Origin: Candidatus Saganbacteria bacterium
GTDB lineage: Bacteria > Margulisbacteria > WOR-1 > XYC2-FULL-46-14
Assembly (NCBI GenBank): GCA_013202975.1
Contig: JABMQY010000136.1
Location: 6,178-70,177 of the forward strand
Direction: 5' to 3'
DNA length: 64,000 nucleotides
The notes under the pieces are model-generated. The model had not been told where the DNA came from. It saw only the letters and a program-made list of their open reading frames with translations, and did not search any database. Numbering within the stretch: the first letter of the stretch is position 1; the number at the start of each line of letters is the position of its first letter. Made by a program: the position numbers and the translations under genes. Shown here one piece after another: positions 1,289-61,744 of this stretch.

Positions 1289-1322
1289 TGAAGTTTTTCT
1301 GATTTTATTAGGATAACAAAAT
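1289..1322 (+). promoter_or_regulatory. Degenerate copy of the TGAAATTT-N14-CGATAT motif (TGAAGTTT-N14-GGATAACAAAAT) followed by ATG at 1323
   Basis: Same 14-nt and 12-nt spacing as the other copies. It is part of the duplicated bidirectional cassette. Confidence 0.3.
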
Positions 1323-1469
1323 ATGAACGCAATTACTGTTCAACCTGCCGGATATTGGGGAAGGAGCGGAATAATTCTTTCCCCAAAAACCCTTAAGGTA
1401 GACTATAAAAACATTGATTCTCATAAAGCCGGACCGGGAAATAAATTTAGAATCCAAACTTATTTGTGA
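1323..1469 (+). CDS. Possible leaderless small ORF (48 aa, MNAITVQPAGYWGRSGIILSPKTLKVDYKNIDSHKAGPGNKFRIQTYL)
   Basis: ATG sits exactly 12 nt after the -10-like element. It is below the ORF-track length cut-off, and there is no other support. Confidence 0.2.
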   Translation: MNAITVQPAGYWGRSGIILSPKTLKVDYKNIDSHKAGPGNKFRIQTYL

Positions 1470-1635
1470 CATCATTTTCACTAAACTCTTAAAATTCTTT
1501 TGACAGAAAAATCTATTAATCGCAGATATTCTTCCATCTCATCAAAAACAGCTTCTTATGATCAAGATGTAAATCAGGTGAAATTTTTGAAATACGTACA
1601 CGATAAAATAATATCAATATTAGGAGGGAATTATT

Positions 1636-2895
1636 ATGTCACCAAAAATATCATTATCCTCAATCGTCAGGACGGCAGCAGCACAAGTAAGAAAAAATCG
1701 AGATCCTCGTCGGGGATGGAATACATGGAGACCAGCTTTTGAAGGCATGGGTTCCATTCCAAAAGAAATGAGTAGCTACGCAGCAAAGCCGGTATTTGAT
1801 AAAGAGGTGCTTCAGTTGCTCATGAGTAATGATGCCCCCATGCCTGATCTTGCAACAGTTGCTGTTGCCCTTTTTTACGGCGTTCCGCTGCTACGCGTAG
1901 AGGGTTGTTCTTTAAGCTTGCAATCAGATCGTATGCCACGCGCAATAGAAAAAAGAGTGAAGGACGGCATTATTTCTGTTCAAGCAACGAAACCAATTGA
2001 TGTCAACAAAGTGCTGGCATTTAACTTAGCAGTTTTAGGAGTTTCCGAGATGAGAACAATCAAAAGTCCGGACTCTCATGGCATGAGGGGACCATATTTT
2101 CGTGATGATAGAATAAACAAAATCCCAAAAAAGGTTACCGAACAAGTTCTCTCTTTAAGTAATGGAAAAGAATGCATAGATCCTCGTTCTGTAGAAGTAG
2201 CAAGGGATTTTCTCAACAAATATTTTCCAGACATACCACAAGATATAATTTTTCGAGATTTAGATGCTAAAGTAATGGCTTTTAATAGCGATGTTTTAAT
2301 AAAGACAAAGACCGTAAATCCAGAAAACATTGCAAAGCAAATCCTATCTCATAACCTTGCACGTTCATGCTACTCTTCTGAATTTGTTCCTTATGATTCT
2401 GTATCCCGGGCAATGCGTTCATTTGAAACATCTGATCCTGAAATAGCAGGAGGGATAATCAAAGCTATTCTCGAAGCGGATAAAATAGAGAAAAGACCAG
2501 GCCCTCATGATTCGAGTGTGGCTTTTTTTGCGGGAAAAGCCTTGTCGATATCTTATGGGCGTGGGTCTTCAAATGCCGATGCCGCTAAGGCAATCATTGC
2601 GGCCGGCTTAACAGATAAGAACCTCTGGGGCAACTCAAGAGATAAAATATTAGGAGAAACATTAGAACATCTTACTTCCGATAGTCCATGGCGGACAGGA
2701 GCAATAATTAAAGAATTGGGATTTGATGGAGAAACCGCTGGCAGGGTCGCATACCACTCAATGGTAGCTAATTATGGCTGGCCGTCAAGGATGGAAAGTC
2801 TACTAAAAGGCTTGGGAATAAGAACAAAAAAAGATAGAGTCGCGTTCGCATCTGGCTTTGGTGTTGGGATAGAAGAGTTAAACGGGGTCCTCTAG
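1636..2895 (+). CDS. Hypothetical protein (419 aa), no recognisable motif
   Basis: Long ORF with a GGAGG-like RBS (ttaggaggg) 6 nt upstream. Confidence 0.5.
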   Translation: MSPKISLSSIVRTAAAQVRKNRDPRRGWNTWRPAFEGMGSIPKEMSSYAAKPVFDKEVLQLLMSNDAPMPDLATVAVALFYGVPLLRVEGCSLSLQSDRMPRAIEKRVKDGIISVQATKPIDVNKVLAFNLAVLGVSEMRTIKSPDSHGMRGPYFRDDRINKIPKKVTEQVLSLSNGKECIDPRSVEVARDFLNKYFPDIPQDIIFRDLDAKVMAFNSDVLIKTKTVNPENIAKQILSHNLARSCYSSEFVPYDSVSRAMRSFETSDPEIAGGIIKAILEADKIEKRPGPHDSSVAFFAGKALSISYGRGSSNADAAKAIIAAGLTDKNLWGNSRDKILGETLEHLTSDSPWRTGAIIKELGFDGETAGRVAYHSMVANYGWPSRMESLLKGLGIRTKKDRVAFASGFGVGIEELNGVL

Positions 2896-59298: not shown

Positions 59299-60412
59299 GA
59301 ATTGCCTGAGCAATCTTTTTAGTTGCCCCAGGAGAACCAAGTGCTGCGGTCACCTTTTGCATGCGGATTTTTAAGTCTTGCGGATTTTTTAGAATTTTAA
59401 TACACTCTTCTGCCATTTTTTTAGGCACTACATTTTTTTGTACAAACTCAGGAATTATATTTTCTTTTGCAATCAGATTAGGAAGGCTAAAAAACGGCGG
59501 AACTTTAATTTTTAGGATTTTTTCGGCAATAAAATAGGTGAGGGGCGAGACTTCGTACATCATAATGTTTGGGACATTCAAAACGCAGGCTTCAATATTA
59601 ATTGTTCCTGATTTTGTAATTAATAAATCCGATGTGTTCAATATGTTATAACTTGAATCTTCTATTATTTTTGTTTTCAGCGGATATTTTTTTAAATGTT
59701 TTTCAATGGTTTTTCTAAACTTTGAATTTGCAATTGGAATTAGAAATTGTGTTTGCGTATATTCTTTTGCTACAAGTTCTGCGGTTTTTAAAATCTTGGG
59801 GAGTAATTTATTGAATTCTTGTTTTCTGCTGCCCAATCCAAGGGAGATAACTGGGAATTCATTTTGCAGACCATGTTTTTTTAAAAACTGTTCTTTAGAG
59901 ATACTTGTTTTTACAATATCAAGAATAGGGTGCCCAAAATAAGCTGTATTTCCACCGGCTTCTTTGTAGGCTTTATGTCCATCTTCAAATATTTCAATTA
60001 TTTGATCGGCAATTTCTGTAACCTTTTTTAGATTGTCATCGGTTCCCCATAGCCATTCCTGCGGAGGGATAAAATAGGCTGTTTTTATTTCTCTTTTTTT
60101 TGCTTCGGTTAGGAAGGGGACATTAAATCCCTGCGAGTCAATTGCGATAACAAGATCCGGTTTTTCTTTGTCCAAATACGAAACCATTTTTCGAAAGGTT
60201 AGATAAATGGGAATAATATTTGGAAGTGTTTCGATTAGTCCGACTGAGCTGCGATCAATAATGTCGTGTCGGACATCCATTCCAGCTGCCGCGAGTTTTT
60301 CTCCACCCATTCCAAAGAATGAAACGTCCGATCGTACTTTTTTGATTTCTTTTACAAGAAATGAACCGTAGAGATCGCCGGAAACCTCTCCAGCAGAGAC
60401 TAATATTCTCAT
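59282..60412 (-). CDS. lpxB: Lipid-A-disaccharide synthase
   Basis: MRILVSAGEVSGDLYGS is the LpxB signature N-terminus. Confidence 0.8.
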   Translation of the reverse strand: MRILVSAGEVSGDLYGSFLVKEIKKVRSDVSFFGMGGEKLAAAGMDVRHDIIDRSSVGLIETLPNIIPIYLTFRKMVSYLDKEKPDLVIAIDSQGFNVPFLTEAKKREIKTAYFIPPQEWLWGTDDNLKKVTEIADQIIEIFEDGHKAYKEAGGNTAYFGHPILDIVKTSISKEQFLKKHGLQNEFPVISLGLGSRKQEFNKLLPKILKTAELVAKEYTQTQFLIPIANSKFRKTIEKHLKKYPLKTKIIEDSSYNILNTSDLLITKSGTINIEACVLNVPNIMMYEVSPLTYFIAEKILKIKVPPFFSLPNLIAKENIIPEFVQKNVVPKKMAEECIKILKNPQDLKIRMQKVTAALGSPGATKKIAQAILKTSG

Positions 60413-61683
60413 ATTCCCAATTCTGGAATATCCGGAAAAATCAACTCTTCATCAATTTCTTCAAGAGCAACTTTTTTGTTGATTCCCCGGCGGCTTTCGG
60501 TTTCAAGGAATTGAATTAGTTGATTTACTTCGTCTAATGGCCTAAGCCGCTTTTTTAGTTCGGTGACAATGGCAGGAGTCCTTTGTTTTGTTTCATAAAT
60601 TATTTTAAAGGCCCTTTTAATTTCTGTGATTGCTTCTTGCGAAATCCCCTTTCTTTGCATTCCGATTGAGTTAATGCTTCGGACCTGTGCCGGATTTCCC
60701 TCTACCAGCATAAAAGGAGGAATGTCCTGGACTATTTTTGAGTTTGCCCCAACCATTGCCAATCTTCCGACCCTGACAAACTGATGGATTCCGGCCATCC
60801 CTCCGATAATTGCCTGATCTTGAATTTCTGTATGTCCGGCTAGGCCGGCGTACCCGCCGATTACGGTGTGATTGCCAATGGTGCAGTTGTGCGGGATGTG
60901 CGCATGAACCATAATTAAATTTTCTGACCCTATGCTAGTTTTGTTTCCTTCCCCGGTAGGAAGATGAATTGTTACGAATTCCCGGATAGTATTTTTGTCC
61001 CCAATAACTATCTGAGACTTCTCTCCCTTATAATGAACATCTTGCGGGGCGGCTCCAATTGCAACTGAATGAAAGATGTGGTTCTTTTTTCCGATTTTGG
61101 TCCAGCGGCTGATTGTTGTATGAGCATCTATCTGGGTTTCTTCTCCAACTTCAACCTCGGGGCCAATTACCACATAAGGTCCGATCTTAACACCCTTTCC
61201 AATTTTTGCGGTAGAGTGAATGGTTGCGGTCGGATGGATCGATGCCCCTCCGGCCCCCTGCGGAACCAGCGAAAAGGTAAAGTCTCCTTCAACGGCAATA
61301 TCTTCCCCCACCTTTGCGATTGCCTTCATTTTTCCAATGCCCCGTCTAAACCAGAGGACCTGTGCCTCTAGCCTTAACTGATCGCCCGGCACTACCGGTT
61401 TTCTGAATCTTACCTTGTCGATTCCTCCAAAATAAATAATTTTTCCCTCAGATGACGGCATTCGTAATGCCAGCACTGCGCCAACCTGTGCCAGCGCCTC
61501 AATTATTAATACGCCCGGCATAATTGGCTGACCGGGAAAGTGTCCCTGGAAAAAGTGCTCATTAATAGTAACGTTTTTAATTCCAACTGCCCGTTTTTCG
61601 TCTTCTAGTTCTATTATTTTATCTATCAAAAGAAAGGGGTAACGGTGTGGAATCGTCCTGAGGATGTCTTGGATATTAAGCAT
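60409..61683 (-). CDS. Fused 3-hydroxyacyl-ACP dehydratase FabZ (N-terminal) and UDP-GlcNAc acyltransferase LpxA (C-terminal)
   Basis: FabZ hot-dog ..LPHRYPFLLIDKI...FFQGHFPGQPIMPGVL.., then LpxA hexapeptide repeats and a C-terminal helical domain, in one uninterrupted 424-aa ORF. Confidence 0.8.
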   Translation of the reverse strand: MLNIQDILRTIPHRYPFLLIDKIIELEDEKRAVGIKNVTINEHFFQGHFPGQPIMPGVLIIEALAQVGAVLALRMPSSEGKIIYFGGIDKVRFRKPVVPGDQLRLEAQVLWFRRGIGKMKAIAKVGEDIAVEGDFTFSLVPQGAGGASIHPTATIHSTAKIGKGVKIGPYVVIGPEVEVGEETQIDAHTTISRWTKIGKKNHIFHSVAIGAAPQDVHYKGEKSQIVIGDKNTIREFVTIHLPTGEGNKTSIGSENLIMVHAHIPHNCTIGNHTVIGGYAGLAGHTEIQDQAIIGGMAGIHQFVRVGRLAMVGANSKIVQDIPPFMLVEGNPAQVRSINSIGMQRKGISQEAITEIKRAFKIIYETKQRTPAIVTELKKRLRPLDEVNQLIQFLETESRRGINKKVALEEIDEELIFPDIPELGI

Positions 61684-61708
61684 TAAAACCTCCTAAATGA
61701 AACTCACC

Positions 61709-61744
61709 TGAAATTCTTTGCTGGAATTTACGATATATATATAG
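61709..61744 (+). promoter_or_regulatory. TGAAATTC-N14-CGATATATATATAG motif
   Basis: Motif copy. Confidence 0.55.

Follow-up and report, generated by a model that had tools for sequence, protein, structure and literature searches.

A near-invariant, phylum-wide promoter motif in Margulisiibacteriota and its probable recognition by a divergent sigma-28 homologue

A 64,000-nt stretch of the genome of a Candidatus Saganbacteria bacterium (contig JABMQY010000136.1), referred to below as the window, raises the question of what reads the almost unvarying bipartite sequence motif with which about 20 of its roughly 32 transcription units begin. The Margulisiibacteriota are an uncultured sister lineage of the Cyanobacteria, and we know of no work on gene control in them; full-text literature searches returned no description of the motif or of transcription signals in Margulisbacteria or Saganbacteria. 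The analysis presented here indicates that the motif is very probably the promoter of an alternative sigma factor of some kind, and that this factor is probably, if with distinctly less assurance, a divergent homologue of FliA/WhiG (sigma-28) which serves accessory, lineage-specific genes and small RNAs (sRNAs).

The motif consists of an A-tract, the box TGAAATTT, a gap of exactly 14 nt and the sequence CGATAT-ATATAT-AG. Sites are numbered on the whole stretch, and positions within the motif are counted from the T of TGAAATTT, which is position 0. Matches to TGAAATT-N15-CGATAT with at most one mismatch number 16 in the window against an expectation of 0.16, and the 14-mer CGATATATATATAG has 8 such matches where 0 are expected. 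A 47-nt position weight matrix (PWM), trained on 16 window sites, recovers 19 sites at 17.8-53.4 bits, compared to a maximum of 14.7 bits in shuffled sequence and an expected 0.02 sites; together with a weak but conserved variant at 7064, the window thus holds 20 sites, 19 of them strong. The promoter-like motif reported by an initial annotation of this DNA is therefore real, and every coordinate listed there is correct, but its count of about 18 copies was short, since good sites at 1579 (plus strand) and 16702 (minus strand) had been overlooked. The perfect 14-mer, which it placed in five copies, is exact in only four (9355, 32962, 36614 and 61731) and has one mismatch in four more, and the consensus said to be shared by all is followed by most copies, with departures at 1289, 3055, 7064, 8662, 10246 and 13746.

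The spacing between the boxes is as rigid as had been claimed: a gap of 14 nt gives 16 matches, and gaps of 10-13 and 15-18 nt give none. Co-orientation with the downstream gene likewise stands: all 20 sites face the same way as the next gene, and all 20 have their CGATAT element in intergenic DNA, which makes up 7.3% of the window (P ~1e-23). In the finer anatomy of the motif, an A-rich tract at -8 to -2 is followed by G or C at -1, pyrimidines come after TGAAATTT, and the spacer contains an A-tract and a T at +19; CGATAT then occupies +22 to +27 and is followed by ATATAT and, at +34/+35, by A or G and then G. The C, G and A at the start of the CGATAT core are invariant in 16/16 strong window sites, and the next T is present in 15/16. 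The sites are listed below with their PWM scores and the open reading frames (ORFs) or genes that they precede, protein lengths being given in amino acids (aa).

1289..1324, plus strand: weaker copy, TGAAGTTT-N14-GGATAA, inside an 87-nt duplication; 27.7 bits; ATG exactly at +34, opening a 48-aa ORF
1579..1614, plus strand: copy with CGATAA; 39.7 bits; 23-nt leader, then a 419-aa Pfam-less gene (1636-2895)
3055..3090, plus strand: copy with CGAAAT; 50.7 bits; 16-nt leader, then a 161-aa Pfam-less gene (3105-3590)
7064..7099, plus strand: weak variant, TGCAAGTT-N14-CGAATA; below the PWM threshold; upstream of a gene starting at about 7114/7140
8662..8697, plus strand: copy with CGATAC; 39.9 bits; ATG of a 204-aa gene (8696-9310) at +34
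9333..9368, plus strand: consensus copy with the perfect 14-mer; 53.4 bits; upstream of the paralogous gene 9404-10237
10246..10281, plus strand: weak copy, TGAAATTA...TGATAA; 17.8 bits; ATG of a 169-aa gene (10280-10789) at +34
13746..13781, plus strand: copy with AGATAA; 33.3 bits; ATG of a 291-aa gene (13783-14658) 3 nt past +34
15160..15195, plus strand: strong copy; 50.0 bits; ATG at +34 opens only a 29-aa ORF
16667..16702, minus strand: copy with CGATAA; 37.5 bits; 16-nt leader, then a 224-aa gene (15978-16652)
16705..16740, plus strand: copy forming a divergent, back-to-back pair with the preceding one; 47.2 bits; leader of about 25 nt, then a 225-aa gene
24841..24876, minus strand: copy; 49.3 bits; 27-nt leader, then a 1075-aa Pfam-less protein, followed on the same strand by an aminotransferase gene and gcvT/H/P
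26018..26053, minus strand: copy; 45.2 bits; ATG of a HEAT-repeat protein (24874-26019) at +34
30322..30357, minus strand: copy (TGAAATTA); 41.5 bits; 43-nt leader, then an FGE-sulfatase-domain protein (29438-30280)
31111..31146, plus strand: copy; 43.7 bits; ATG of a 597-aa ORFan (31145-32938) at +34
32940..32975, plus strand: consensus copy; 44.1 bits; ATG of a cNMP-binding/metallo-beta-lactamase protein 4 nt past +34
36592..36627, plus strand: consensus copy; 52.5 bits; 40-nt leader, then a 281-aa signal-peptide protein and pth
52213..52248, plus strand: copy; 43.3 bits; GTG of a second FGE-sulfatase-domain protein (52247-53110) at +34
58167..58202, minus strand: copy; 49.7 bits; 58-nt leader, then a 640-aa protein, followed on the same strand by DegT, GFO/IDH and RseP genes
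61709..61744, plus strand: consensus copy (TGAAATTC); 47.3 bits; 135-nt leader, then a 245-aa ORFan

The local duplication of 87 nt pairs 1215-1301 with 2981-3067 (with further pieces at 1526-1560, 2926-2960 and 4013-4047) and affects two motif copies. The duplicated unit is a divergent promoter region in which the motif and a sigma-70 promoter occupy opposite strands, and remnants of 950-1237, a small gene, are found near 2900-3003.

The position of start codons relative to the motif indicates where transcription is likely to begin. An ATG or GTG stands exactly at +34, that is 7 nt after CGATAT, in 7 of the 20 sites (binomial p=7e-8); five of the seven open long ORFs of 169-597 aa (8696, 10280, 26019 on the minus strand, 31145 and 52247), three further start codons lie 3-4 nt past +34, and the NCBI gene call for the 597-aa protein has the same length and the same ATG. 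The remaining sites have TAG(A/G) at +34 and leaders of 16-135 nt with Shine-Dalgarno sequences. Start codons at +34 imply “leaderless” mRNAs, which places the transcription start at or just before +34, so that a subset of motif-driven mRNAs would begin directly with the start codon, at an A or G 7 nt after CGATAT. Once the start is fixed in this way, CGATAT becomes -12 to -7, the preceding T and G become -15/-14 and TGAAAT becomes -34 to -29, and the geometry of the motif, thus aligned, is that of a sigma-70-family promoter. In one relative (locus L010) the orthologue of the gene behind the 8662 copy has kept the motif but has a short leader with a Shine-Dalgarno sequence.

The taxonomic range of the motif was mapped by an exact scan for TGAAATTT-N14-CGATATATAT in one genome per species (185,579 species), which gave at least 115 loci, examined as 8-kb blocks and designated here by L numbers. 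Among the listed matches, 72 carry a taxon label, and 64 of these 72 belong to Margulisiibacteriota, Saganbacteria or WOR-1; the other 8, each a single match from another phylum, are about as many as chance would give. The 43 listed loci without a label come from metagenome-assembled genomes several of which gave many loci. Positions that the scan leaves free are conserved in 107 sites from the phylum, whose genomes range from 35 to 60% GC: T at -15 in 86/107, G at -14 in 70/107, the upstream A-tract, the spacer A-tract, A/T at -2/-1 and a purine (A/G) at +1 followed by a purine-rich run. The matches outside the phylum have none of these extra conserved positions. Viral contigs yielded only 5 chance singletons, and a phage origin of the motif was rejected on this ground.

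Conservation can also be followed site by site, since L010 is syntenic with 3971-13738 of the window at 58-82% protein identity. Promoters there are kept at orthologous positions while their flanks diverge, the 9333 copy having an orthologous consensus copy at L010:4264, and even the weak 7064 variant (CAAGTTT-N13-ACGAATA) is conserved at its orthologous position. Gene 10280, which follows the weak 10246 copy, is absent from L010.

The motif is one of two promoter classes in the window, since the intergenic regions without it carry near-consensus promoters of the primary sigma factor. TTGACA-N17-TATAAT-type promoters had been noted at rpmH, skp and the 8175 gene, where they are indeed present; dnaN is among the units with a near-consensus promoter of this type, and the others read as follows.

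rpmH: TTGACA-18-TAAAAT with TG
fabZ-lpxA: TTGCCA-17-TATAAT
helix-turn-helix gene: TTGACA-17-TATTAT
950-1237: TTGACA-17-TAGAAT
3636-3944: TTGACA-16-TATAAT
Germane-domain gene, 242 nt downstream of the 15160 motif copy: its own promoter, TTGACA-17-TATCAT
mazG-ftsH: TGTATAAT
skp-lpxD: TGTGATATAAT
8175 gene: TTGCAG-17-TATAAT

The question of which sigma factor reads the motif can be approached through its likeness to known promoters. The consensus for SigD, the sigma-28 of Bacillus subtilis, is TAAA-N15-GCCGATAT. In Campylobacter jejuni, where 26 sigma-28 sites were found among 992 start sites, these promoters carry CGATwt, 6-8 nt ahead of the mapped starts (PMC3847290), and the 52 sites of Escherichia coli FliA determined by chromatin immunoprecipitation sequencing (ChIP-seq) read TAAAGTTT-N11-(t)GCCGATAA, with tGCCGATAA at the -10 (PMC4183435). 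The window motif shares with these promoters the -10 core CGATA(T/A), the preceding tG (tGnCGATAT here, against tGCCGATAA in E. coli) and the near-consensus character that is typical of alternative sigmas; its predicted start would likewise fall within 6-8 nt of the -10. It also shares the register of the two boxes: a PWM built from 25 strong E. coli ChIP sites selects the same register (+1, with TAAAGTTT over GAAATTTY) in every window site but the weak 7064 variant (19 of 20), and motif sites take ranks 1, 3, 4, 7, 10, 11, 12 and 19 of the 128,000 window positions, the site at 24876 being first. The agreement in -10 element, register and implied start distance speaks for the dedicated sigma-28-like factor that the initial annotation had suggested. 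The likeness has its limits, in that the -35 reads (T)GAAATTT instead of TAAAGTTT and matches the sigma-28 element TAAA(GTTT) only partially (6/8, with G instead of T as the first base), the base before CGAT is not C, the ATATAT discriminator and the +1 are conserved in addition, and part of the regulon is apparently leaderless.

A sigma factor of the appropriate type is encoded in the phylum. It was found by walking from FliI, locus L062 carrying fliH-fliI-fliJ; more than 120 proteins are related to this FliI at 79-89% identity, and many come from Saganbacteria, Margulisiibacteriota or WOR-1, motif-bearing assemblies among them. In three genomes of 41, 42 and 60% GC, a FliA/WhiG-like sigma gene lies within an operon for the flagellar basal body whose order is flgF, flgG, flgA, flgH, flgI, a flgJ-like gene, the sigma gene, flgB, flgC, fliE, fliF, the FliG gene, fliH, fliI and fliJ. 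The three sigma genes encode proteins of 241-248 aa with Sigma70_r2 and Sigma70_r4 domains, at the following positions.

L121:5408-6154: FliA/WhiG-like sigma gene
L123:5378-6103: FliA/WhiG-like sigma gene
L124:5460-6188: FliA/WhiG-like sigma gene

Of 59 sigma models, the best for the L121 protein is FliA_WhiG (TIGR02479; E=2.3e-38, model positions 2-224 of 224), followed by WhiG and FliA. The proteins are about 75% identical among the three genomes and 27-28% identical from end to end with SigD and FliA. Two of the sigma-bearing genomes (JAFGHC and WOR-1 RIFOXYB2_FULL_42_35) also gave motif loci, and the promoter of the flagellar operon is itself of the canonical sigma-70 type, TTGAC(A/T)-N17-TATAAT. 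The search for a FliA/sigma-28 gene proposed in the initial annotation has thus succeeded for motif-bearing Saganbacteria and WOR-1 genomes, and not for the window's own genome, of which 64 kb were covered.

The FliG protein of the same operon is only 152-157 aa long (L121:8815-9276, L123:8853-9311, L124:8838-9311, with fliH directly next). Besides the N-terminal domain it has a trace of the middle one, and the C-terminal domain that generates torque is missing, so that one may ask whether the apparatus rotates.

Several results weigh against assigning the motif to this sigma factor. Its gene is known from the relatives L121, L123 and L124 and not from the window's own contig, and tblastn and phmmer searches with RpoD, FliA, SigD, RpoE and SigW queries revealed no sigma gene either in the window or among the 115 listed motif loci, their sole match being an orphan protein of 111 aa in L072 that consists of region 4 only. 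The L121 protein scores 132.2 bits, below the FliA_WhiG cut-off of 189.6, and it is accordingly called a divergent relative rather than a certified member of the family. The scores of the E. coli FliA PWM at the motif sites do not exceed 14.8 bits and are no better than the shuffled best of 14.2, so that only rank and register are informative. The -35 TGAAAT also resembles that of promoters read by sigma-W (TGAAAC-N16-CGTA), an extracytoplasmic function (ECF) sigma factor. Neither the 20 window sites nor the 101 sites examined in relatives are followed by a flagellin, motor or chemotaxis gene; flagellin, MotA and FlhA queries had no match in about 900 kb, though 8-kb samples cannot show absence from the genomes. 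Finally, three unbiased 21-kb flagellar or housekeeping loci contain no copy of the motif, which means that its density is uneven across the genome (19 sites in the 64-kb window against 0 in 64 kb of such loci and, in the motif-seeded blocks of 8 kb, roughly one additional site for every 16-36 kb) and that the size of the regulon is uncertain.

These points have to be set against what other explanations can account for. One would have an ECF sigma (group 4) akin to sigma-W read the motif; sigmas of this type normally control genes of the envelope. The spacing TGAAAT-N16-CGAT is that of the sigma-W promoter, five of six -35 bases are the same, both promoters are T-rich after the -35 and begin the -10 with CG, and several downstream products are envelope or surface proteins (SLH-domain and signal-peptide proteins). 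The hallmarks of ECF promoters are nevertheless missing: the -35 has no AAC, its third base being T in every strong site (GAAAT), and the -10 reads CGAT and not CGT(C/A). ECF sigmas lack region 3, which reads the extended -10, and the conserved TG at -15/-14 suggests a sigma that possesses it (groups 1-3). In addition, ECF sigmas are usually autoregulated, and no sigma/anti-sigma operon follows any of about 130 motif sites. We consider an ECF sigma unlikely. Another alternative sigma-70-family factor, either of group 3 or specific to the lineage, could equally be imagined, with the FliA-like sigma confined to true flagellar late genes; this would be in keeping with the lack of such genes behind the motif and with a -35 whose first base departs from TAAA. 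Against it stand the CGATAT element, the register, the implied start distance and the tG at -15/-14, each of them sigma-28-like, and the presence of a very conserved FliA-like sigma across the same phylum; this too seems improbable.

Explanations without any alternative sigma fare worse. The Bacteroidota have a promoter consensus, -33 TTTG / -7 TAnnTTTG, that is read by their primary sigma, and the motif might analogously be the housekeeping promoter of its phylum, recognized by a primary sigma of altered specificity. In both cases the promoter sequence is diagnostic of a whole phylum, but the Bacteroidota consensus is the housekeeping promoter, whereas the housekeeping genes here have canonical sigma-70 promoters, which exist side by side with the motif. 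The abundance of the motif in the window would fit such a role, as would a preprint according to which promoter prediction based on sigma-70 often gives incomplete lists for Margulisbacteria (10.64898/2026.09.23.753901). Near-consensus TTGACA-N17-TATAAT promoters at rpmH, fabZ-lpxA, mazG-ftsH, skp-lpxD, dnaN and the flagellar operon nevertheless led to its rejection; moreover, recognition by primary sigma-70 calls for A at -11 and T at -7, while the motif, with the start at the leaderless ATGs, has G at -11, which is incompatible with group-1 recognition of the -10 and excludes a group-1 sigma, and the three unbiased loci lack the motif. A housekeeping role is thus exceedingly improbable. Alternatively, a mobile element or recent duplication could have moved a strong promoter around, leaving the copies as relics with no dedicated regulator. 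The 87-nt duplication does hold two copies, a copy precedes each of the paralogues 8696 and 9404, and cassettes of motif plus gene have been inserted between conserved genes. Apart from that duplication, however, the likeness between copies ends at the motif edges (about 45 nt), the spacer is constant in length and variable in sequence, no terminal repeats surround the copies, and the same bipartite pattern precedes unrelated genes in genomes of 35-60% GC across the phylum. A mobile-element origin was rejected on this repeat analysis, and spread by duplication, which had been offered as an alternative in the initial annotation, accounts for at most a few local copies; relics are a very improbable explanation. 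The same may be said, with slightly more force, of the idea that TGAAATTT and CGATATATATATAG are operators for one or two regulators, or the promoter of a phage-type single-subunit RNA polymerase. The end of the motif, ...TATAG followed by GAGA, loosely recalls promoters of the T7 type, but the motif is non-palindromic, viral contigs gave no more than the chance matches mentioned above, and the bipartite geometry is of the sigma type, with a 17-bp gap between hexamers, TG at -15/-14 and the start 7 nt after the -10.

If the divergent sigma-28 homologue does read the motif, control could operate as a two-tier cascade. The primary sigma would transcribe the basal-body operon and thereby produce both the basal-body proteins and the sigma-28-like factor, which would in turn fire a stereotyped promoter ahead of many lineage-specific genes and short sRNAs, and the genes downstream would be co-regulated. 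The presumed targets include ORFans, FGE-domain, HEAT and cNMP proteins, Ser/Thr kinases, GGDEF proteins and SLH proteins. The promoter would be composed of a UP-like A-tract, the -35 TGAAATTT (-34 to -27), the spacer A-tract, TG at -15/-14, CGATAT at -12 to -7 and a discriminator rich in A and T. Transcription would begin at an A or G that follows CGATAT by 7 nt, and in the leaderless subset the start codon would itself lie at this position. Such a cascade would be like the classical flagellar one, where both the basal body and FliA are made under the primary sigma and the late promoters are then fired by FliA; the location of the sigma gene in a flagellar operon driven by the primary sigma is also typical of sigma-28 systems. 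It would differ from known sigma-28 regulons in that no late flagellar gene was found and in its density, which is far above the 26 of 992 starts in C. jejuni and the 52 sites in E. coli.

Use of sigma-28 outside the flagellum has precedents in the late genes of Chlamydia (hctB, tsp) and in the Fed/Cia colonisation proteins of C. jejuni, some of which leave the cell through the flagellar export apparatus. In these systems, as here, a FliA-type sigma drives non-structural genes, but their regulons comprise a handful of genes, whereas the present one would probably run to tens to hundreds of genes per genome, most of them ORFans, with sRNAs in addition. A more speculative extension, which we regard as rather unlikely, is that the flagellar set, whose conserved operon has rod, L/P-ring, MS-ring and FliHIJ genes beside the truncated FliG, has been cut down to the basal body and export apparatus, that the sigma has turned into a master switch of a large, fast-evolving set of ORFans, and that the acid-poor N-termini of their products are export signals. 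If true, this would amount to a secretion system derived from the flagellum, with sRNAs and a regulon of substrates of its own, that evolved in parallel to the injectisome.

The genes behind the motif have the accessory character that had been attributed to them, while their description as “secreted or effector-like” goes beyond the evidence, since signal peptides are present in only a few of the motif-led proteins. The first genes behind the motif are poor in Pfam families (5/18 with Pfam, against 35/42 of the other genes; p=6e-5), and 101 motif-led proteins in relatives contain 42 Pfam families in all, namely Pkinase (5), SLH (3), GGDEF (3), TPR (3) and otherwise singletons, most of the proteins having none. 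The 597-aa protein (31145-32938), annotated as hypothetical, is a true ORFan whose only match among 5.8 billion clustered proteins is itself. Housekeeping genes such as gcvTHP, pth and rseP occur further downstream of some motif-led genes. Many motif-led genes are single-gene cassettes inserted between conserved housekeeping genes: the 61709 copy and its 245-aa ORFan, in opposite orientation, separate lpxC from fabZ-lpxA, its direct neighbour in L033, and in L062 the motif and a 401-aa ORFan stand between fliJ and rpmB/recG, with nothing between these in L123 and L124.

The N-termini of motif-led proteins are poor in acidic residues, with 1.7 in the first 30 positions against 3.05 in other proteins (p=0.016 in the window and p=0.0005 in relatives). 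They are rich in R/K/P/S/T and have no hydrophobic core (MTRILGSRIQSARRF, MVRITRPPGTPSP and MMAITPPRGTRKTPP are examples), and INPIGRF recurs among the motif-led proteins of relatives. These N-termini may be a shared targeting or export signal. A conserved protein of 61-65 aa (…YDVASISQPGKxKR…QFVKVFADMFLKKE…), without family assignment, is preceded in six genomes by the promoter in its strongest form (L026, L058, L061, L063, L077 and L106). At L072:190-932 the motif drives a conserved protein of about 100 aa (MKLNDKIRDRK...), also present in L051 and L080; only in L072 is its gene followed by that of a protein of 111-128 aa which is little more than sigma-70 region 4 and has no database relatives.

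In relatives, some motif copies precede sRNA genes of about 65-70 nt, recognizable by an intrinsic terminator (a GC-rich hairpin followed by a U-run) about 45 nt after the presumed start. RNAs bounded in this way by motif and terminator speak for the motif as a promoter over and above its position and orientation, and they lend the presumed start indirect support. Two families are conserved behind the motif.

Family A, starting at the presumed +1: L001:1216, L023:4403 (minus strand), L046:2543 (minus strand), L054:6355, L059:5895 (minus strand), L069:1571, L114:2158
Family B, with the same promoter and terminator loop (GCCUGUUC) as family A: L006:4612, L017:7361, L071:2404 (minus strand), L111:3678

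In family A, 6 of the 10 terminator pairs show compensatory changes, the loop GCCUGUU is invariant, and the single-stranded 5' end CAUACCU(UUCAC) is invariant as well, its complement GAAAGGUAUG corresponding to a Shine-Dalgarno sequence plus AUG. Family B differs in its 5' part, which forms a hairpin followed by CUCUUAUUUGGU. Rfam gave no match for either family, nothing relevant in the window and only tmRNA and tRNAs in 18 loci, which places the motif-driven RNAs outside known families.

Some motif-driven transcripts have recognizable structures near their 5' ends. Nearly the same 10-bp stem-loop, CCAUGAACC-loop-GGUUCAUGG, lies right after +1 in two of them, behind the 30357 and 36592 copies (30298-30321 and 36631-36654), and GAACC...GGUUC hairpins are present in two others (about 58140-58165 and 61745-61790); these hairpins may be stabilizers or a protein-binding site. 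In L007:5187, L083:640, L088:912 and L103:6866 (minus strand), the leaders contain 3-4 repeats of (A/C)(A/G)GGAUAU, the last of which overlaps the Shine-Dalgarno sequence, and one of the genes encodes an SLH-domain outer-membrane protein. The repeats look like binding sites of the CsrA type; in Bacillus, CsrA controls the flagellin mRNA that is driven by sigma-D.

A promoter and regulon of the sigma-28 type are, as a kind of element, already known. What appears to be new is the combination of a near-invariant 36-nt promoter spanning a phylum, a leaderless subset, an apparently large set of non-flagellar targets dominated by ORFans and sRNAs, and a divergent FliA encoded inside a basal-body operon with a truncated FliG. 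Supplements of the FlgV paper list no operons from Margulisbacteria. The promoter can be recognized by eye and is diagnostic of the phylum, and it offers a handle on the whole regulon from sequence only, marking transcription starts, leaderless genes and unannotated sRNA genes, separating accessory from housekeeping genes, and flagging Margulisiibacteriota contigs in metagenomes. It could also serve as a ready-made strong promoter in future genetic tools. A flagellar-type sigma with an apparently large non-flagellar programme would bear on the evolutionary re-use of alternative sigmas, and possibly on the purpose of the conserved, odd basal-body operon.

The remainder of the window is the replication-origin region of a diderm, with dnaA, dnaN, dciA, gyrB, gyrA, rpmH-rnpA-yidC-jag-mnmE and lpx genes. 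Clusters resembling DnaA boxes (TTATCCACA and variants) at 45324-45585 and 46960-47100 flank dnaA/dnaN, a further pair lies at 51230-51255 before folD, and the GC skew turns near 46 kb; the clusters and the turn together indicate that the window spans oriC. Four tandem copies of (C)CCGTAAC, spaced at 10 nt, are found at 30363-30410, upstream of the TGCTATAAT promoter of a gene for a protein resembling a carbohydrate-binding module (30431-31099), and this looks like a regulator-binding array. An imperfect palindromic repeat with CAAAC/TCAAA units (AACATCAAACTTCAA...) occurs at 51084-51145, 58244-58376 and 20260-20290, at the ends of convergent or terminating units, and may be a lineage-specific terminator or a repeat like the repetitive extragenic palindromic (REP) elements. 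FabZ and LpxA are fused into one 424-aa protein (60409-61683), and the fusion is kept in the Saganbacteria locus L033 at 68% identity.

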